DNA from: Escherichia coli
GTDB lineage: Bacteria > Pseudomonadota > Gammaproteobacteria > Enterobacterales > Enterobacteriaceae
Assembly: GCF_003334385.1 (NCBI RefSeq)
Contig: NZ_QOWN01000040.1
Length of the DNA stretch: 38,787 nucleotides
Strand: one strand, 5' to 3'
Shown here: positions 26,984-34,656 of the stretch, piece by piece
Layout: every line of letters starts with the position of its first letter
How positions within the stretch are numbered: the first letter of the stretch is position 1
Translations under genes and position numbers: made by a program
Notes under the pieces: generated by a model
Databases searched by the model: none
Told to the model about the DNA's origin: nothing
The model's input: the letters and a program-made list of their open reading frames with translations, nothing else

Positions 26984-27634
26984 ATGAACAAAACAAAAAG
27001 CAGATATCCTTCCTGGTGGGCATATTACCACTTGGCCCGCAACGCTTATTTCTTATTAGGAATACCGTGTTTACTTTTATACTCAGCCGCTTATACATCA
27101 GATTTATTAGATGATAATCTAAGACATTCAATAAGTCTTTTTATTCTGGCATATGGATGTTATTTTCTTCTTTTCATTCCTCCGCTCTGGTTATATCTGA
27201 GAACCAGAGCGAAGAAAAAGAAAGTCCAGCAGGTTGTTCAGCAGATAAAAGAAAGCAGTCCCTTTGCGCCGACCAGCGATTACGAGCAACTGTCATTCTC
27301 AAAGAGTTGTTATTTCGGGATCGACATTAAAAACGGCACCATGCTGTATGTGCGCATTTATCCGAACAATGTGATGGATGTGATTGGTCTGGATATTCAC
27401 AACTTTACCCGCACGGTTGCTGAAGACGGCAAGCTGGAAATCCACACTACATATGTGAGTCTGCCGATGATCCCACTGGAAATCTCCGGCATCTCATCAA
27501 GGACGCTGGCCAACACCATGCACACCATGGCTGCACGTGGATATGAGTACAAGGAACGTTTCCCGCAGATGATTCGGTATCGGGTTAAAGAATGGGAAAA
27601 AGTTGCCGGTGTGCCTGTTGCGGAAGTATTTTGA
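26984..27634 (+). CDS. excA: entry-exclusion-like inner-membrane protein (ExcA position)
   Basis: 216 aa with two N-terminal TM helices, a Lys-rich linker and a soluble C-terminal domain. It is immediately downstream of traY, and R64 ExcA is about 220 aa as recalled. Confidence 0.6.
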   Translation: MNKTKSRYPSWWAYYHLARNAYFLLGIPCLLLYSAAYTSDLLDDNLRHSISLFILAYGCYFLLFIPPLWLYLRTRAKKKKVQQVVQQIKESSPFAPTSDYEQLSFSKSCYFGIDIKNGTMLYVRIYPNNVMDVIGLDIHNFTRTVAEDGKLEIHTTYVSLPMIPLEISGISSRTLANTMHTMAARGYEYKERFPQMIRYRVKEWEKVAGVPVAEVF

Positions 27635-27666: not shown

Positions 27667-27698
27667 AGCCGGTTTTCTCTGAACCGGCTTTTTCTTTT
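27667..27698 (+). terminator. rho-independent terminator after excA
   Basis: AGCCGGTT-TTCTCTG-AACCGGCT stem-loop followed by TTTTTCTTTT. Confidence 0.8.
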
Positions 27699-27907
27699 CA
27701 GGCAGAATGCCTGTCTGCCGTCTATCTCAGGACGCCGCATGGAGTCTCTATGTTTTCCCCACAAATTCTTAGCACTGTCTTGCCCACTGTAGACAAAATC
27801 AATACAATTCTGCATATCAGTTATCTATAAAAGATAACAATATCATTATAAATAATTATCATATCCACACACTCAAGGCAGTACCTAGAAAACATAAAGA
27901 TAAAATC

Positions 27908-29494
27908 ATGTCTGAATCCCGCAGCAATTTTCCAGCACGACATGGTACTCCATGGAATACTGAAGAGTTACAGCGTCTTCTCGTATCCATAGCGGAGGGC
28001 GTCTCGCTAAAAAAACTTACTCAAACACATCAACGATCGTCCGGGGGAATACGTGGAGCAATCAAACGCCTGCTTCCTTCTGAGTTTCTTGAGTTCAACG
28101 ATATAAACACGGTGAATGATCTCAGCAATTACTTCAACAAGATTCCTCGCCAAGAACACAATAGTATCATCAATAATTTAATATCATTGAGCACTGCAAA
28201 AACAATTGCTCATGATAAAGTTGAAATACAAAAGAATAGTTTTAAACAAAATACCCCACTCCCCCTCTGCCAACCCAATACAGATTTTAAAGATTATATA
28301 GCCGATGAACATGATGTCATTATGCTAATTCATTCTGCTATCGAAAGTTTATCTAATAAACGACATCAATATATTCTTCTAATGCGGCTCGGCACAGATG
28401 ATTCACCTCATTCTCTGGCAGATATTGCCGTCAAATTAGGAATTTCCCGTGAAAGGGTAAGACAACTTCAGGAACGAGCCCTTGGCTTACTAGCTGCTAA
28501 ATCTCGCTATGAAGGGACACCTGGAGCTTGCCTTAAAGCCCTTATTAACTCAATAGGTAATTCACCATATGATATAGCAGTATGGATTTATCGTATTGTT
28601 CATCGGGATTTCGTTACATCCTCTGACTTAGCCGCCAAATTCATTATTTTTACCGCAGGCATTCCTAAAGCAAGACGAGATGAAATAAAAAGTTCGCTCT
28701 CATTAATATCACAATTACAAAAGCAGAGGTTACGTGAACGAAGAGCAGAATTAGCACACGCTCGCGCTCAGGAAAGAGCCCGAATCAAGAAAGAAAGAGT
28801 TGAGTTCATATTCAGTAAATGGCTAGACAATACACATTGGCCAAAATATATCGCACCTCCTCCCCCCGTAGAACAGCTATGTTCACAGAGAGCGGTTAAT
28901 GATACTGACATATCTGGATTCTTTTACTCTCAAAAATTAGGTCGTACAGTCCAGTACGAATCAGGGCTTGAGTTTAAAATAATGAATCTATTAGAATGTT
29001 GCAATCAGGTTCTTTTCTATCAAGAACAACCATTTTCTATTCCATATTGTTTTAAAAACAAATCAAAAAAATACTATCCAGATTTACTCATTGCGACAGT
29101 TGATGGTCGGTGCCTACTTATGGAAGTGAAGCCAACAGACCGAATGACCTTGAGTCTCACGAGAATAAAAAGTAATGCAGGTCGCAAATGGGCACATACT
29201 CGAGGATGGGGATGGTTGGTCATTAGTGATAGGTTCTCGTTACGTCAGCTGGAAGAACATGCCATCTCAACAAACACATGGAAACTTATAGAGGCTGAAC
29301 TGAAAACATCAAGGATTTTAGCATGGCGTGAAATGATGGAGTTACGTACACGATACGAGATTCATCGTTTAGATCTTATTGCATATATCATTCAGTCTGG
29401 TGCTGAAGTGGATAACTTTTATCGAATTACCCCGAAAATATCTAATAATACATCTAACCAGAGACAACCAAATGAGAGCGACTGTCATAATTGA
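27908..29494 (+). CDS. multidomain protein: SANT/Myb-like N-terminus, sigma-70 region 4 HTH, coiled coil and TnsA-like PD-(D/E)xK nuclease domain
   Basis: Around aa 138-197, KRHQYILLMRLG...SLADIAVKLGISRERVRQLQERAL resembles sigma70 region 4. Around aa 338-440, YESGLEFKIMNLLE...YYPDLLIATVDGRCLLMEVKP resembles the TnsA N-terminal endonuclease E/D/E-x-K pattern. No TnsB/TnsC-like gene lies nearby. Confidence 0.65.
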   Translation: MSESRSNFPARHGTPWNTEELQRLLVSIAEGVSLKKLTQTHQRSSGGIRGAIKRLLPSEFLEFNDINTVNDLSNYFNKIPRQEHNSIINNLISLSTAKTIAHDKVEIQKNSFKQNTPLPLCQPNTDFKDYIADEHDVIMLIHSAIESLSNKRHQYILLMRLGTDDSPHSLADIAVKLGISRERVRQLQERALGLLAAKSRYEGTPGACLKALINSIGNSPYDIAVWIYRIVHRDFVTSSDLAAKFIIFTAGIPKARRDEIKSSLSLISQLQKQRLRERRAELAHARAQERARIKKERVEFIFSKWLDNTHWPKYIAPPPPVEQLCSQRAVNDTDISGFFYSQKLGRTVQYESGLEFKIMNLLECCNQVLFYQEQPFSIPYCFKNKSKKYYPDLLIATVDGRCLLMEVKPTDRMTLSLTRIKSNAGRKWAHTRGWGWLVISDRFSLRQLEEHAISTNTWKLIEAELKTSRILAWREMMELRTRYEIHRLDLIAYIIQSGAEVDNFYRITPKISNNTSNQRQPNESDCHN

Positions 29495-29628: not shown

Positions 29629-29638
29629 CCGTTAACGT

Positions 29639-29932
29639 TTAACTTCGTAGGCTAACGTTGCCACAAACACCGTATTTCCCTGCTCGATACGAAATCCGCA
29701 AAGCGAATCCCTCACCATCCAGACAAAACACAGTATCGTCACACAGACGACGATTAACATCATTAAAAACATTCGTTGTGGCATCGCAGCCCCTCCATTG
29801 CCTTTCGGCCGTCATCGGGCTACTATAATGTTGTCTAGGCATTACAGTGGGCCCTGGGTTGATTGATAAAAAAATCGCCTGGGGCTTTCTGCTACATGCC
29901 GTCCACAAAACGCTTTCGGCATACAGCCTCAA
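29639..29932 (-). CDS. hypothetical protein (start uncertain)
   Basis: ORF only. There is no clear RBS for either the Met at 29932 or the internal Met at 29842. Confidence 0.3.
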   Translation of the reverse strand: MRLYAESVLWTACSRKPQAIFLSINPGPTVMPRQHYSSPMTAERQWRGCDATTNVFNDVNRRLCDDTVFCLDGEGFALRISYRAGKYGVCGNVSLRS

Positions 29933-30113
29933 GCGCCCGCCGCTATTCTAATCGTTTTCCTGTCCGCCACAATCCTTTTCATGCCACCACGTATTTTGTG
30001 TCAGGGACAGAAATAAAGCCGGAAAGTGACTACGTGTGCACACATCTGTTTTCCGGGCTGCAGGCATCGTGTTATTTTCTGAAATGCAAAATAATAAAAA
30101 ACAAGGACACATC

Positions 30114-31234: not shown

Positions 31235-31455
31235 CGGATATTACTGACAGACATACACTTCGCCGTATGTCCTGGGCAGAGCTGAGCACTACGGCCCGGG
31301 ATGCAGAATCAAAACATGATTACGAAAGAGCCAGAATACTGTGGTCATACGCATACAGTATTGCAACAACCAGCATAAATAAAAATCTGGCCAGTGCACA
31401 TATTCGTTACTGTGACAAAAACATACACCTGATGAGTATAATCAAACTTTATTAA
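31231..31455 (+). CDS. ANR-family-like small regulator (AraC negative regulator type)
   Basis: 74 aa, ATGA-coupled. ARDAESKHDYERARILWSYAYSIATTSINKNLASAHIRYC fits the A..AE....Y..A...W..A......N......R..C pattern I recall for Aar/ANR proteins. Confidence 0.45.
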   Translation: MTDITDRHTLRRMSWAELSTTARDAESKHDYERARILWSYAYSIATTSINKNLASAHIRYCDKNIHLMSIIKLY

Positions 31456-31633
31456 TTATCTGTTTCTGTAAACAACATACACTCATAAAAGATAATATCT
31501 TACACAAGTAAACCAAACTGTCACAACGAAAATAACGGCCTTGCTTTATTGCATTATTCTGAAGATATCAGTATATAAGATGAGCATTCGTGGCTGGTTA
31601 ATATTTCCTCTCAGCATTCAAGACCACATCGTT

Positions 31634-31665
31634 CATTAATGCCTCATTTTAATGAGGCATTAATG
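31634..31665. repeat. 15-bp perfect inverted repeat (hairpin) between convergent genes
   Basis: CATTAATGCCTCATT-TT-AATGAGGCATTAATG lies 21 nt beyond the stop of the minus-strand transferase gene. There is no U-tract on either side. Confidence 0.6.
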
Positions 31666-31686
31666 ATTACCCAGATTAGAACCTGT

Positions 31687-33231
31687 TTAAAACGCTGAAT
31701 CTGCCTTTCCTGTAAGTAGAGGCTCTTCCGGTAAAGTCATAATCGGGACATCATGTTCACCATTAAATACCGATACATATTCAGTGTAATTACCCTGTAA
31801 TAATGGTGAAATCAACGGCAAATTCCGTGTTTGTATTCCGGTGAGCCACTGGAAAATTTCCGGAAAGCGACGGGCACTGATATGAATATCATGGTTCTGA
31901 TGCGTTACGATATCACTGGCCATAATAACAAAGGGGACATCATACCCTGAGCGTAAACCCGGCGCGTGATGAACAGGAGTGCTGTCTGAACTGACAGACA
32001 GGCCATGATCAGAAAAGTAGACCATAGCAAAATCCTCTCCACGAGCTGTCACCATCTCATAAATATTCTGCAGAAATTTATCCAGTTTCACCAGTGTCGA
32101 TAAATAACAGGATACTTTTCGCCCAAATATTTCACGGAATGGCTCAGCATCATTAAAAAGTCTGTCACAGGGATTAGGATGTGACCCCATCATATGAACA
32201 AAAATTACTTTTGGAGAGGATGAATTAACCGCCTCCCTGACGAACTGAAGCATGTCTTCATCATCTGTCCGGCGTGATGCAAAACTTCCCTCTTTAAGAA
32301 AATATTTCTTATCTGCATTGCTGGCAACAACAGAAATCAACGTATCATGTACCCCTAAAGCCCCCTGATTTGATATCCACCATGTTTCATATCCTGCATT
32401 GCTGGCAAGCGTAACCATATTATTACCAGGATTGCCTGATTCAGCATAGTCAAGAATAAGTGTTCTGCTGAGTGAATCAATGGTATTGGCCGCAGATGAA
32501 AAATAGCCATTAATAAATATACCCGGTGCTGAATTCATCCATGGTGTTGTCGGCAACGGATACCCATAGACTGAAAGATAATCCCGCCGGACACTTTCAC
32601 CAATAACAATAATTATTGTTTTATATTTCTTTTCAACACTCACTATTTCCCATGAGCTTTTTTGATTGTTATTAAGTGTTTCATAACGAATCATTTCGGC
32701 TCTGGTTTCAGCAACGCCTGTCACCACCTCCACAGCCATACGTCTGGGCCATGCATTGACCGACAATGCAATAAAAAATAACAGAAAGAGAACGCCTTTT
32801 TTGTTTCTTTCTCGTGTACGCCAGAACCAGACAGTGAACATAACTATCATCAATGAGATAATAAAATAAATAATGGGTATACCTGCGATAAACTCTTCTG
32901 CTTCTGTTACATTAGTCTGCATTAACGATGCAATAAAGCTGCCGTTAATCTTCCCGTAGATAATACCCACCGGAGCATAAAATGCACTAAACAAAAGAAA
33001 ACAGCAGACACATACTGCTGACAGTATATTCTGCCGTCCTGTCATAAACAGCAGAAACAAAAGAATAATATTACCAAATGCATTCTTCTCTGTATATCCA
33101 CAACACCATGAAACAATTACAGAAAATAACAGACAAACGAGAACTTTTTTATTCACTGCATGGATGCAGAAATTTCTTACCCCACTCAGAAAATATTCGG
33201 ATTTTTCTTGCGCGCGTAACTTACCTGGCAT
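31687..33231 (-). CDS. phosphoethanolamine transferase (EptA/OpgE/Opt-type, sulfatase superfamily)
   Basis: About 5 N-terminal TM helices, then IIIVIGESVRRDYLSVYGYPLPTTPW, SSAANTIDSLS (candidate Thr nucleophile), VHMMGSHPNP and YFSDHGLS. The gene is very AT-rich. Confidence 0.8.
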   Translation of the reverse strand: MPGKLRAQEKSEYFLSGVRNFCIHAVNKKVLVCLLFSVIVSWCCGYTEKNAFGNIILLFLLFMTGRQNILSAVCVCCFLLFSAFYAPVGIIYGKINGSFIASLMQTNVTEAEEFIAGIPIIYFIISLMIVMFTVWFWRTRERNKKGVLFLLFFIALSVNAWPRRMAVEVVTGVAETRAEMIRYETLNNNQKSSWEIVSVEKKYKTIIIVIGESVRRDYLSVYGYPLPTTPWMNSAPGIFINGYFSSAANTIDSLSRTLILDYAESGNPGNNMVTLASNAGYETWWISNQGALGVHDTLISVVASNADKKYFLKEGSFASRRTDDEDMLQFVREAVNSSSPKVIFVHMMGSHPNPCDRLFNDAEPFREIFGRKVSCYLSTLVKLDKFLQNIYEMVTARGEDFAMVYFSDHGLSVSSDSTPVHHAPGLRSGYDVPFVIMASDIVTHQNHDIHISARRFPEIFQWLTGIQTRNLPLISPLLQGNYTEYVSVFNGEHDVPIMTLPEEPLLTGKADSAF

Positions 33232-33390
33232 TCTTTACACCGATACAGACAGTTAATTAAATATTCATGGGCACTTTATGTGAAATAGTTCACAAAAGTA
33301 TCTCACACCTGTACATTCCGGCACCTATGATACCAACAAGAATATTTTCAACAACTCATTCCCTGAATTCATAAGGCACAAAATGATTAT

Positions 33391-33414
33391 AACGCCTCAC
33401 AACCACGAGGCGTT
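33391..33414 (-). terminator. stem-loop after the 154-aa membrane protein gene
   Basis: AACGCCTC-8 nt-GAGGCGTT with flanking extension. On the minus strand it is followed by ATCATTTTGTG. Confidence 0.45.
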
Positions 33415-33427
33415 AATCATAATGCAT

Positions 33428-33892
33428 TTAGTGTATAAATATACCTTTTGCTCTTTTAGAGAGATAAATATACAAAATAAAAAGAACAGCAATAACGCCA
33501 TCAATAAATATGTTTTCAATACTTCCATCAGGAGTATAATCAATCCCAACAATATAAAAACAATAGACATAACTTACAGCATAATAAACGATATAAACAA
33601 GATAAATATACAGAAGCAATCTGTTAACATGTCTTTTTCTTCTAAAGAAGGAGAGTATAAAATACATACATAACACAGAAAGAATAATAAACACCCCTAT
33701 AGATATAATAAAATACTCTTTTACCTGTGAGTCTTCGTGCAGCGACATGTACAATGAATAAAAAGTTCCAGCCAGACTCAGCCTTGTGATAAATATATAA
33801 ACAACAGACAAAAGAATAATAAAAAGAACTATACCAAACTTTGGTCTTTTTTCTTTTTGTAGCATTACAGCATTTTCCTTCATCATATACAC
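33428..33892 (-). CDS. polytopic membrane protein, unknown function
   Basis: 154 aa with about four Tyr/Ile-rich TM helices. Extremely AT-rich and upstream of the PEtN transferase on the same strand. Confidence 0.55.
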   Translation of the reverse strand: MYMMKENAVMLQKEKRPKFGIVLFIILLSVVYIFITRLSLAGTFYSLYMSLHEDSQVKEYFIISIGVFIILSVLCMYFILSFFRRKRHVNRLLLYIYLVYIVYYAVSYVYCFYIVGIDYTPDGSIENIFIDGVIAVLFILYIYLSKRAKGIFIH

Positions 33893-33975
33893 GTTCTTTA
33901 CACTATTCCTGTAAAATTTCGATAAAAGCTCATCAGATTTTGTGTGAGGACGGTGACAAAAAATGAGTCCGGTTT

Positions 33976-34656
33976 TTAAAGGGTATATGCAGAAACCATC
34001 CGTGTGGTTCCGGTCAGCGTGTCTGAGACCTCAACATCCCGGGTGATGATTGTCATTCCGGACTGACGCAGCCGCTGCACATCTGCGGCAATACGCTGAA
34101 TACCAAGCCAGAACAGACCATCCAGCGCGGTGACAATTAACCCGCTTTCCAGCGCCAGTTTCAGCCGTGCTGTCGGAGCTTTAACCTCCCCGGCTATATC
34201 AGTGAAACAACGTGTCGTCATGCCATAGCTGTCCACCCGCCGTATTCGCGTCGCAAGACTGTAACTGAAGCTATCAGGCACGCCGGATAAGTCATTCTGC
34301 AGACTGTATACACATCCCCGCTGCCGCTCATTGAATACGACTTTTTTCTGGCTGAGCAGCCATTCCCGCCGCAGGCTGTCAATCATCTGCGGTGTCCGGG
34401 TTAACAGCAGACGAAACGGCAGTTCAAAACTGGTCACGTAATCAACATTCAGCAAAGCTGTCCGTAGCCGCTCCCTGGCACCTGCTCCGGTATCACGGCA
34501 TTCACGCATGACATCTGCCCACTGGCGCATCAGTCGCGGAGACTCATTCCTAGCCCTGAACTGATATTTCTCAATCTGATAATCAATATGTTCCTGCATA
34601 CCGTCACCGGATATCTGTTGCCGTATCATCACGGATATCAGCGTACTGGAATTCAT
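33976..34656 (-). CDS. DNA-binding protein with a C-terminal HTH_39-like winged helix
   Basis: The C-terminus ALESGLIVTALDGLFWLGIQRIAADVQRLRQSGMTIITRDVEVSDTLTGTTRMVSAYTL fits the pattern of the PF14090-type HTH as recalled. The N-terminal domain is unrecognised. Confidence 0.55.
   Translation of the reverse strand: MNSSTLISVMIRQQISGDGMQEHIDYQIEKYQFRARNESPRLMRQWADVMRECRDTGAGARERLRTALLNVDYVTSFELPFRLLLTRTPQMIDSLRREWLLSQKKVVFNERQRGCVYSLQNDLSGVPDSFSYSLATRIRRVDSYGMTTRCFTDIAGEVKAPTARLKLALESGLIVTALDGLFWLGIQRIAADVQRLRQSGMTIITRDVEVSDTLTGTTRMVSAYTL

Follow-up and report, generated by a model that had tools for sequence, protein, structure and literature searches.

A sigma-70 region 4 fused to a TnsA-type nuclease domain in a solo gene of mobile elements, with a possible role in defence or inter-element conflict

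In the window, by which is meant the whole 38,787-nucleotide stretch of Escherichia coli DNA analyzed here (contig NZ_QOWN01000040.1), a complete gene at 27908..29494 (+ strand) encodes a 528-aa protein in which a genuine sigma-70 region 4 is linked through a long helix to a TnsA-type PD-(D/E)xK nuclease domain, both Pfam domains scoring above their cut-offs. The favored explanation, to which we assign a probability of roughly one-half, is that this is a stand-alone nuclease of mobile elements, aimed or controlled by promoter-recognition modules and deployed in defence or inter-element conflict. The proposal builds on the identities of the domains, the conservation of catalytic and DNA-contact residues, the solo occurrence of the gene, its carriage by mobile elements and its frequent adjacency to defence systems. 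A literature search for a sigma region 4 combined with a TnsA nuclease returned nothing beyond the two papers on plasmid pCT (Cottell et al., 2011, 2014), and RNA polymerase promoter-recognition modules joined to a nuclease constitute an architecture that we have not found described.

The gene, its history and its upstream region

The open reading frame begins with an ATG and, in the ORF list, has exactly the extent, strand, length and quoted residues that an earlier sequence-only reading had given it; its GC content of 39.5%, where the window as a whole has 52.1%, agrees with the description of the gene as AT-rich. That same reading also labeled it an orphan, which is wrong on two counts: the gene has been known since 2011 as pCT_066, and the family comprises no fewer than 458 clusters (50% identity) matching at E≤1e-30. 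The encoded protein is pCT_066, a WP_000004560-type “TnsA endonuclease N-terminal domain-containing protein,” and the published pCT_066 primers match exactly at 27970-27989 (+) and 29239-29258 (−). Its counterpart in pL2-87 bears the same TnsA endonuclease N-terminal annotation. The gene was originally described as an “unusual putative sigma factor” of the IncK plasmid pCT (Cottell et al., 2011), an annotation that took in the sigma-like part only and noted neither the nuclease, nor the wider family, nor the defence-island context. Its knock-out left plasmid stability, conjugation, host growth, biofilm formation and competition unchanged (Cottell et al., 2014). Such a null outcome is as expected of a conditional immunity gene, and the normal transfer of the knock-out plasmid disfavors a role in conjugation or in exclusion, the latter having been among the initial suggestions.

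Immediate surroundings in the window are of a non-defence kind, consisting of excA and a Hok/Sok module. ExcA is encoded upstream at 26984-27634 (NCBIfam surf_exc_IncI1, E=7.7e-76) and, as initially proposed, the gene of interest lies beyond its terminator, a terminator-like hairpin at 27667..27689 (+) composed of a 9-bp stem and a T-run, which also appears as a repeat in the inverted-repeat listing. This hairpin directly precedes the regulatory region of the gene itself. Two weak sigma-70 promoter-like sites follow at 27780-27808 and 27834-27862 (+), each with 9 of 12 matches; the number of such sites does not exceed the shuffled expectation, and the segment 27780..27862 is a candidate promoter only. 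The second site overlaps an inverted repeat, GTTATCT-N5-AGATAAC (27820..27838), located by exact sequence match and previously put forward as a possible operator. The repeat is indeed present, but it is not on its own beyond chance, because by our own arithmetic about 26 perfect 7-bp repeats with a spacer of at most 10 nt are expected in 38.8 kb. Nor do the upstream regions of 10 homologues contain it, which leaves the operator idea without support. Approximately 150 nt of upstream sequence travel with the gene in Pectobacterium, Providencia and Salmonella.

Promoter-recognition modules and the connecting helix

The chief recognition element is a sigma-70 region 4 helix-turn-helix (HTH) of the group-1 sigma type, spanning aa 134-198 (28307..28501, +) and delineated by Pfam and PDB profiles. 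PF04545 scores 36.2 bits over residues 150-193 (cut-off, 24.1), and among PDB entries a profile of the family finds RpoD/SigA region 4 at E=1e-15, so that the sigma-70 region 4 recognized by eye in the initial reading is well borne out. The recognition helix reads SRERVRQ. Seven residues, R152, R160, L170, E182, R183, R185 and Q186, are conserved at 90% or more in 71 diverse members that share 19-41% identity with the window protein, and are invariant in a 29-sequence alignment. We take these to be the equivalents of sigma70 R554, R562, L573, E585, R586, R588 and Q589, respectively, which presumably read the −35 hexamer or otherwise contact DNA. No Sigma70_r2 match was obtained from Pfam at E≤1, and all NCBIfam sigma models match only over their last ~60 residues, far below their cut-offs.

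Ahead of this module, the AF2 model places a three-helix HTH at aa 11-57 (27938..28078, +), with helices at 18-29, 34-41 and 45-55, that is possibly Myb/SANT-like or GcrA-like. The W..EE..L signature noted earlier is conserved, its W and E being invariant along with further G, L, G, H, R and R positions in the homologue alignment; the assignment to Myb/SANT rests on weak matches. Per-member Pfam searches of 15 sequences gave four weak Myb_DNA-binding matches, the best at E=0.005, and comparison of the domain with PDB profiles gave weak Myb matches (c-Myb, E=0.36) together with spurious matches to WH2. The same N-terminal module in one relative, P0182, and in that relative only, gives a sub-threshold match to Pfam GcrA (E=1.3e-4). 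Many family members do without the domain, which is thus an optional addition to the core.

On the other side of sigma region 4, the AF2 model continues with a helical bundle (aa 205-249) and an Arg/Glu-rich segment (aa 254-307), together at 28520..28828 (+). The latter, anticipated as a coiled coil, is modeled as one uninterrupted helix of 54 residues with pLDDT above 90, and is probably a dimerization coiled coil. The arrangement of the domains relative to one another is uncertain, since the pTM of the model is 0.57.

The nuclease and the domain that follows it

The TnsA-like PD-(D/E)xK nuclease domain occupies aa 330-440 (28895..29227, +). Its kinship to TnsA emerges both from Foldseek and from a sequence-level match to the TnsA of CRISPR-associated transposons (CAST; E=1.4e-9), in line with the fold that had been predicted from the letters alone. 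The catalytic candidates are E355 (28970-28972), D392 (29081-29083), E406 (29123-29125) and K408 (29129-29131), all on the + strand. Like the DNA-contact residues of sigma region 4, these four are retained at 90% or more in the 71 members and are invariant among the 29 aligned sequences; a lack of such conservation would have counted against the initial reading. The E/D/E-x-K pattern proposed at the outset thus stands as a conserved set, but its first glutamate had been misplaced. Upon alignment to the Tn7 TnsA sequence, the equivalent of TnsA E63 is presumably E355 of a “GLE” motif and not E351 of the nearby “YES,” even though E351 is also invariant in the 29-sequence alignment. The alignment to CAST TnsA agrees with the E355 assignment. 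Judged by its residues, the domain appears catalytically intact and would be an active nuclease.

The polypeptide does not end with the catalytic domain. A helical, winged-helix-like domain at aa 445-510 (29240..29437, +), modeled by AF2 as helices over 445-497 plus short strands, had been overlooked in the first reading. Pfam TnsA_C finds no match in the window protein. The Foldseek alignment to TnsA extends over ~230 columns, exceeding the length of the catalytic domain, and the segment is likely to be the equivalent of the TnsA C-terminal domain, which holds the same position.

Family, distribution and genomic neighborhoods

The succession of sigma region 4, helix, nuclease and probable winged helix is the core layout common to the clusters, and members from different phyla retain the full architecture in an intact ORF. 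Among the 71 long members, Sigma70_r4 is matched in 70, TnsA_N in 69 and RNA_pol_A_CTD in 9, with individual matches to the last exceeding the cut-off. These RNA polymerase alpha C-terminal domains in relatives had also escaped the first reading. Their presence recasts the HTH as one of several RNA polymerase promoter-recognition modules. When the genome collection was scanned with the sigma region 4 motif, 79 of the 80 loci proved to be ordinary sigma factors.

The gene is carried on plasmids, islands and a prophage. About 300 IncI-complex plasmids bear the gene, and in the 4.7% of complete E. coli genomes that have it, it is plasmid-borne every time. Its place in IncI plasmids is a fixed gap of the backbone, at which those lacking the gene have a different small ORF. 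Copies are truncated or internally deleted in ~19% of E. coli carriers, a rate of decay that fits a dispensable and possibly costly gene. Viruses hardly figure: 2.9 million viral contigs of IMG/VR yielded 2 loci, and 50,697 phage records contained one full-length homologue plus 3 further records matching the nuclease domain only. A phage origin was entertained and rejected, given a single full-length prophage homologue (in a Mycobacterium prophage) and the two IMG/VR loci.

Neighborhoods were sampled in 14 independent homologue contexts, a small and non-random set. The gene is solo in all 14, and neither TnsB nor TnsC occurs within 10 kb in any of them, which extends to the homologues the lack of these partners and of transposon ends first remarked upon in the window. 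A catalogued defence system is adjacent or within 10 kb in 5 of the 14 contexts, and an OLD-family nuclease is present in a sixth. In a Pectobacterium integrase island, the gene directly follows GajA and GajB of Gabija (E=9e-269 and 2e-230) and precedes McrBC; on a Providencia plasmid, it directly follows Borvo BovA (E=2e-128). A BREX operon (brxA, brxB, brxC, pglX) lies ~3 kb away in Salmonella, and the Xanthomonas homologue adjoins a Lamassu LmuB-like SMC ATPase with SIR2 and GmrSD nearby. Another integrase island combines a Thoeris ThsB-like TIR protein with an OLD nuclease, PIN, HNH and a STAND ATPase, and at a proAB site the gene stands beside an OLD-family nuclease. No recognizable defence genes were seen in the Streptomyces, Archangium and Stenotrophomonas contexts. 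In an F-type conjugative element, the gene is near ardA and radC; a plasmid leading-region anti-defence gene was considered on this account and rejected, as the gene there is oriented the other way and oriT is distant from the IncI copy. The window protein itself matches no model of PADLOC-DB v2.0.0, the sole signal being a weak one to SspB over the HTH (E=5.6e-4, 17 bits).

Proposed mechanism and competing explanations

The scheme that best accommodates these observations is a single-gene cargo of plasmids, islands and prophage that would encode a probably dimeric DNA endonuclease. A long helix ties the TnsA-type nuclease and its probable winged helix to modules of transcription-machinery origin. 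Of these, sigma region 4 of group 1 is the constant one and retains the residues that would read the −35 hexamer; some relatives also have the C-terminal domain of RNA polymerase alpha or, as in the form found here, a Myb/GcrA-like HTH. Through these modules the nuclease would be brought to promoter-like DNA or linked to factors that engage the corresponding surfaces of RNA polymerase, whereupon the TnsA-like domain would cut. The defence-island neighborhoods fit the stand-alone, HTH-guided nuclease in defence or competition that the sequence-only reading had envisaged. We infer nuclease activity, binding to −35-like DNA, dimerization and an immune role. As a counterpoint, unless kept under tight control, a nuclease reading −35-like hexamers should poison its host, and a search for a control element or immunity partner of the gene found none.

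A related proposal, rather unlikely and in effect a sub-variant of the defence reading, no longer has promoter DNA as the main target and regards the protein as an integrated decoy. Sigma region 4, the alpha C-terminal domain and the GcrA-like module would then mimic the RNA polymerase surfaces that phages attack, and a phage factor would unleash the nuclease; AsiA- or gp67-type anti-sigma factors, alpha-acting ADP-ribosyltransferases and promoter-bound phage activators would be candidate triggers. In a related version, the nuclease would replace RNA polymerase on upstream promoter DNA exposed during takeover. Of all parts of RNA polymerase, sigma region 4 and the alpha C-terminal domain are best known for being targeted by phages, the family repeatedly includes the latter, the gene is found in defence islands, and the closest structural relatives of its sigma region 4 include complexes of that region with phage proteins (4g6d, 1tlh). 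A decoy would also explain the sparing of the host genome. Yet the strongest conservation in sigma region 4 falls on DNA-contact residues, as expected for DNA binding and not required of a decoy, and the homologues, inspected by eye, show no sign of mimicking the sigma factor of their own host.

Three further explanations forgo an immune function. Conceivably, the gene is a selfish free-standing endonuclease, homing- or addiction-like, that cuts a specific site recognized by its HTH modules and thereby spreads or retains its cassette with no benefit to the host. Its invariably solo occurrence at many unrelated intergenic positions and elements, its AT-richness relative to its surroundings, the co-traveling upstream sequence in three genera and the absence of a plasmid phenotype upon knock-out would all be congruent with this. 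What makes it unlikely is that loss alleles are internal deletions or truncations and not clean empty sites, that gene-less IncI plasmids hold a small ORF and no recognizable target site, that phages, where free-standing homing endonucleases are common, are nearly devoid of homologues, and that −35-specific residues imply a very frequent target instead of a rare one. It is similarly improbable that the protein is a transcription regulator, binding −35- or UP-like DNA or competing with sigma for RNA polymerase, with the nuclease fold reduced to a DNA-binding or oligomerization module. This explanation echoes the original “sigma factor” annotation and draws on a genuine sigma region 4 with intact recognition residues and on the other transcription-type modules that accompany it. 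However, without sigma regions 2 and 3 the protein cannot serve as a sigma factor, retention of the E/D/ExK set at 90% or more in very divergent members is unexpected of a dead nuclease fold, and the knock-out altered no measured trait of plasmid or host. Finally, a Tn7-like transposon remnant or domesticated subunit, decaying or served by a distant TnsB/TnsC-type partner, is very improbable. No solved structure is nearer in fold and sequence than TnsA, including CAST TnsA, but beyond the fold there is no positive evidence for the domesticated transposition protein or transposon fragment once contemplated: TnsB and TnsC are missing from the 14 contexts, the only inverted repeats around the gene are weak (71-82%) with no convincing flanking inverted or direct repeats, the protein reaches 47 bits with NCBIfam TnsA_like_Actin (NF033179), whose cut-off is 110, and an intact, full-architecture ORF across phyla ill befits a remnant.

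Relation to known systems and significance

The proposed conflict nuclease shares elements with several known proteins. With TnsA of Tn7 and CAST (PDB 1f1z, 1t0f; PF08722), it has in common the E...D...(Q/E)xK motif and, probably, a helical, winged-helix-like domain after it; unlike TnsA, it carries an N-terminal extension of ~320 residues with sigma region 4, the coiled coil and an extra HTH, and it resides solo in islands and plasmids, with neither TnsB/TnsC partners nor transposon ends. With region 4 of RpoD/SigA (PF04545), it shares ~45% identity over the HTH by our own count, the (S/T)RER(V/I)RQ recognition helix and the conserved backbone-contact arginines, whereas it lacks regions 1.2, 2 and 3, cannot bind core and open promoters, and is fused to a nuclease. 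Shedu SduA is a single-polypeptide PD-(D/E)xK defence nuclease with variable N-terminal sensor domains, found solo in defence islands and mobile elements. The family parallels it in pairing a conserved C-terminal PD-(D/E)xK core with swappable N-terminal modules, but its core is TnsA_N and not DUF4263, it has no PADLOC match, and its putative sensor modules are parts of RNA polymerase. MzaA of the MZA system (NCBIfam NF041931) also brings a sigma-70 region 4 into a defence-associated protein; the match to it, however, is confined to region 4 and reaches 27 bits against a cut-off of 800, and MZA is a five-gene system whereas the window gene is solo.

The gene rides epidemic resistance plasmids of the IncK/IncB/O/Z type, including the pCT blaCTX-M-14 lineage, and for 15 years has carried the database label “sigma factor” with no phenotype attached. 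Should its product be a nuclease of immunity or conflict, hosts of these plasmids gain an unrecognized barrier to phage or rival plasmids, one that would bear on phage therapy and on plasmid ecology. The family may also represent a TnsA fold at work outside transposition, and it allows a direct test of whether bacteria use look-alikes of the transcription machinery to target or sense invaders.

Domain architecture and fold

The 528-amino acid fusion protein is encoded on the + strand at 27908..29494 from an ATG start, exactly as the sequence-only reading had it. Ahead of the gene stand excA (26984-27634), which matches the NCBIfam model for the IncI1-type surface exclusion protein at E=7.7e-76, and a hairpin resembling a terminator (27667-27689), an order that was likewise read correctly. 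Its GC content of 39.5%, against 52.1% for the window, sets it apart in composition profile from the traY region (52-60% GC). Pfam places Sigma70_r4 at residues 150-193 (36.2 bits; cut-off 24.1) and Tn7_TnsA-like_N at residues 366-440 (46.5 bits; cut-off 26.5). The AlphaFold2 model, for which 29 homologues were used (mean pLDDT 88), begins with a three-helix N-terminal domain (residues 18-55), followed by two further helices with a disordered linker (103-121), a four-helix sigma region 4 (134-198), a small helical bundle (205-249), a single 54-residue helix (254-307) corresponding to the Arg/Glu-rich "coiled coil" noted earlier, an alpha/beta nuclease domain (337-439), and a C-terminal helical domain (445-497) with short strands.

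The helix-turn-helix, initially described as sigma70 region 4-like, is by its sequence a genuine group-1 sigma region 4. In addition to the Pfam match, the family profile matches RpoD/SigA region 4 structures at E ~1e-15, through the motif eR..vL.mRlGl....TL.eiG..fgvSrERvRQiq.rAlrrL. R152, R160, L170, E182, R183, R185, and Q186, each at least 90% conserved in a 71-member alignment, correspond by position to R554, R562, L573, E585, R586, R588, and Q589 of sigma70, the residues that contact the -35 element and the backbone. Neither Pfam nor NCBIfam detects a sigma region 2 or 3 in the protein, which rules it out as a sigma factor; the earlier annotation thus mistook what kind of protein it is.

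On the nuclease side, Foldseek ranks TnsA first (probability 1.0, ~230 columns aligned), and the C-terminal half, used as a profile, finds the TnsA from a CRISPR-associated transposon (E=1.4e-9) with ES.LE, Y.PD, and E.KP in register, bearing out the TnsA-like endonuclease call. E351, S352, E355, D392, E406, and K408 are invariant among 29 homologues with identity down to 22%; in 71 more diverse members, whose identity to the window protein is 19-41%, D392 never varies and E355, E406, and K408 each reach 90% conservation or more. We take E355, D392, and E406-x-K408 to be the equivalents of E63, D114, and Q130-x-K132 of Tn7 TnsA. The proposed catalytic set is thus conserved among homologues, but its first member needs correction: since E355 aligns with E63, the E351 of "YES" is a conserved neighbour and not the E63 equivalent. 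Judged from these alignments, the domain looks TnsA-like and active, with its catalytic centre intact. Separately, residues 335-421 match PHROG 218, which carries the label 'head closure' (E=1.3e-11), and the nuclease domain shares 37% identity over 75 residues with the protein annotated in Acinetobacter phage vB_AbaM_ME3 as 'head completion protein', which suggests that this family of phage head-completion proteins has a TnsA-like nuclease fold.

A family with variable promoter-recognition modules

The description of the gene as an orphan does not survive: it was already on record as pCT_066, and an exhaustive HMMER search of 1.84 billion representatives recovered 458 related cluster representatives at E<=1e-30. 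Sixty-five relatives that share both Pfam domains emerged from a word-indexed search; they come from Pectobacterium, Dickeya, Salmonella, Providencia, Buttiauxella, Mangrovibacter, Xanthomonas, Stenotrophomonas, Streptomyces, Kitasatospora, and Archangium. Because most top HMMER matches span profile positions ~150-516, the conserved core (~370-400 amino acids) comprises sigma region 4, the helical linker, the long helix, the TnsA-like domain, and the C-terminal domain; the N-terminal part is variable.

Among 71 long members, Pfam detects Sigma70_r4 in 70, TnsA_N in 69, and RNA_pol_A_CTD in 9 (best E=1.2e-15). This alpha C-terminal domain precedes sigma region 4 in relatives such as P0167 and P0187 (48 and 38 bits; cut-off 23.8), P0119, and P0182. 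The last is ordered as a GcrA-like helix-turn-helix (E=1.3e-4, below cut-off), an alpha-CTD-like domain, sigma region 4, and TnsA, and its first module shares R.G..W..EE...L.....G......A..H.R....I...L..L with residues 11-57 of the window protein. As these variants indicate, the family repeatedly joins transcription parts that recognise upstream promoter DNA (the UP element, the -35 element) to one nuclease core. Such parts are docking places for activators and phage factors. Two further arrangements were seen: P0167 carries two extra Myb/GcrA-like module copies at its C-terminus, and P0089, another relative, appears from its sequence to begin with a second TnsA-like domain in degenerate form.

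Plasmid distribution and published record

The window contains exact matches, at 27970-27989 and 29239-29258, to the primers published for the "pCT putative sigma factor", which identifies the gene as pCT_066 of the epidemic IncK blaCTX-M-14 plasmid pCT. Two papers discuss it as a putative sigma factor (PMC3377399, PMC4083329). In 2011 it was noted as unusual, with homologues only in four related plasmids (PMC3377399). In 2014 it was swapped for aph, which left the traits assayed unchanged: stability of the plasmid, its conjugation into E. coli or Salmonella, growth of the host, and biofilm, with a competitive index of 1.00 (PMC4083329). Automatic annotation labels it "TnsA endonuclease N-terminal domain-containing protein" or "sigma factor-like HTH protein", and we found no description in the searchable literature of the fused architecture, the family, its alpha C-terminal domain variants, or its defence-island association.

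Near-identical DNA occurs in 471 PLSDB plasmids, in 280 of which the protein is at least 80% complete. Among 5,426 complete E. coli genomes, 256 have the gene, in every case on a plasmid, and in 207 of them the copy is near-full-length. In IncK2/Z-type backbones its place is fixed, in the gap that separates excA from the pnd (Hok/Sok) module, whose flank is common to ~1,900 IncI-complex plasmids; where the gene is missing, these plasmids have a small reverse-strand ORF at the same place. Decay is sporadic: some IncI-gamma/K1 plasmids, p61806-CTXM among them (locus L093, 3999-4003), have lost 1,366 bp by a clean internal deletion (window 27956-29321) and retain only the first 16 and last ~57 codons, and other copies are truncated or frameshifted, with 5′ fragments annotated 'RNA polymerase subunit sigma-70' in other plasmids.

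Upstream of the gene, the inverted repeat GTTATCT-N5-AGATAAC is present at 27820-27838, where it overlaps a weak promoter-like site (27834-27862), but it is absent upstream of 10 homologues, so that the operator once proposed is reduced to the possibility of a plasmid-specific, putative one. Promoter-like sites in the region are no more frequent than in shuffled sequence.

Neighbouring features of the window

Immediately downstream lies the pnd module, with a Hok/Gef-type toxin ORF (29632-29784, - strand) and sok antisense RNA (29782-29938, - strand; Rfam RF01794, 125.6 bits). Relative to the IncK2/Z plasmid pL2-87, the window carries a 2.6-kb insertion of 37% GC (31407-33991) encoding, on the - strand, a 514-amino acid phosphoethanolamine-transferase-like protein (31687-33231) and a 154-amino acid ORF with no family match (33428-33892). 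The former is distant from the CptA, EptA, and MCR families (best NCBIfam 102 bits vs. a cut-off of 404; 20-26 bits vs. ~1250 for MCR-4/5/7/8 models) and may be a divergent enzyme that modifies lipid A or LPS, here carried by a conjugative plasmid. Two AgrB-type antisense RNAs (35973-36060 and 36716-36801; Rfam RF02891, 47.7 and 51.8 bits) occupy the positions at which pL2-87 has two DinQ-like type I toxin (dqlB) genes annotated, marking a tandem duplicated toxin–antitoxin pair.

Genomic contexts of homologues

The absence of TnsB and TnsC genes, first remarked on for the window, extends to all 14 independent homologue neighbourhoods, and no neighbour is common to the 14. Defence genes recur. 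In Pectobacterium, the gene sits in a P4-type integrase island immediately after GajA/GajB (PADLOC 9e-269, 2e-230), followed by three genes of no known function and then McrBC. In Salmonella, a BREX operon (brxA, brxB, brxC, pglX) ends ~3 kb upstream; on a Providencia plasmid, the homologue lies immediately after Borvo BovA (2e-128); in Xanthomonas, it adjoins an LmuB-like SMC ATPase (1.6e-31), with SIR2_2 and GmrSD close by. An integrase island in GCA_015548865 holds an OLD nuclease, ThsB (4e-132), PIN, an adjacent HNH, and a STAND-type ATPase, and a proAB-adjacent island also has an OLD-family nuclease. Elsewhere, one homologue adjoins HipA and another lies near RHS toxins. No recognised defence genes accompany the homologue in a conjugative element of the F type (close to ardA and radC, to which it is oppositely oriented), in a Mangrovibacter integrase island adjoining smpB, or in a Mycobacterium abscessus prophage, where it lies beside three tyrosine integrases; the IncI/K plasmid site likewise has no defence neighbours, and the Streptomyces and Archangium settings are unremarkable and chromosomal. 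Phage records almost never carry the gene, and no PADLOC model matches the window protein.

The three consecutive Pectobacterium genes (locus L002, 12150-17274) encode 734, 643, and 327 amino acids, the last with a weak ZorA/MotA-like match (E=8e-6), and may form an uncatalogued defence system. About 150 nucleotides upstream of the start codons are conserved among the Pectobacterium, Providencia, and Salmonella loci, whose neighbourhoods are unrelated, and the gene thus seems to carry its 5′ region along when it moves; only a short GGCAGT...GAAAAC-like stretch of it recurs in the window copy.

A candidate conflict nuclease

The best-supported reading is that of a stand-alone nuclease that would act in defence or in conflict between mobile elements, with the promoter-recognition modules providing its targeting or control. 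Several observations converge on it: an intact TnsA-type catalytic centre, strongly constrained DNA-reading residues in sigma region 4, N-terminal modules that vary within the same functional theme, solo and horizontally mobile occurrence with recurrent placement in defence islands, and a gene dispensable for plasmid maintenance and transfer that decays sporadically. We put its probability at about one half, because the neighbourhood sample is small and a protein that reads -35-like DNA would need some means of sparing its host. That same difficulty lends interest to a variant in which the modules, as RNA polymerase look-alikes, are decoys that sense phage takeover factors; we regard it as rather unlikely, given that conservation is concentrated on the DNA-contact residues.

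The solo mobility of the gene would also fit a selfish, homing-type endonuclease, yet its loss alleles are of the deletion type, recognisable empty target sites are lacking, and it is rare in phages, all of which render this origin improbable. A pure transcription regulator would leave the conserved catalytic residues unexplained and is similarly doubtful, while a Tn7 remnant, having failed every context test, is very improbable indeed. Under the favoured reading of a conflict nuclease, the window protein would resemble single-polypeptide immune and conflict effectors, in which swappable sensor modules are attached to a nuclease core. It would differ from those known in its unusual set of recognition modules, and in a nuclease fold hitherto tied to transposition.
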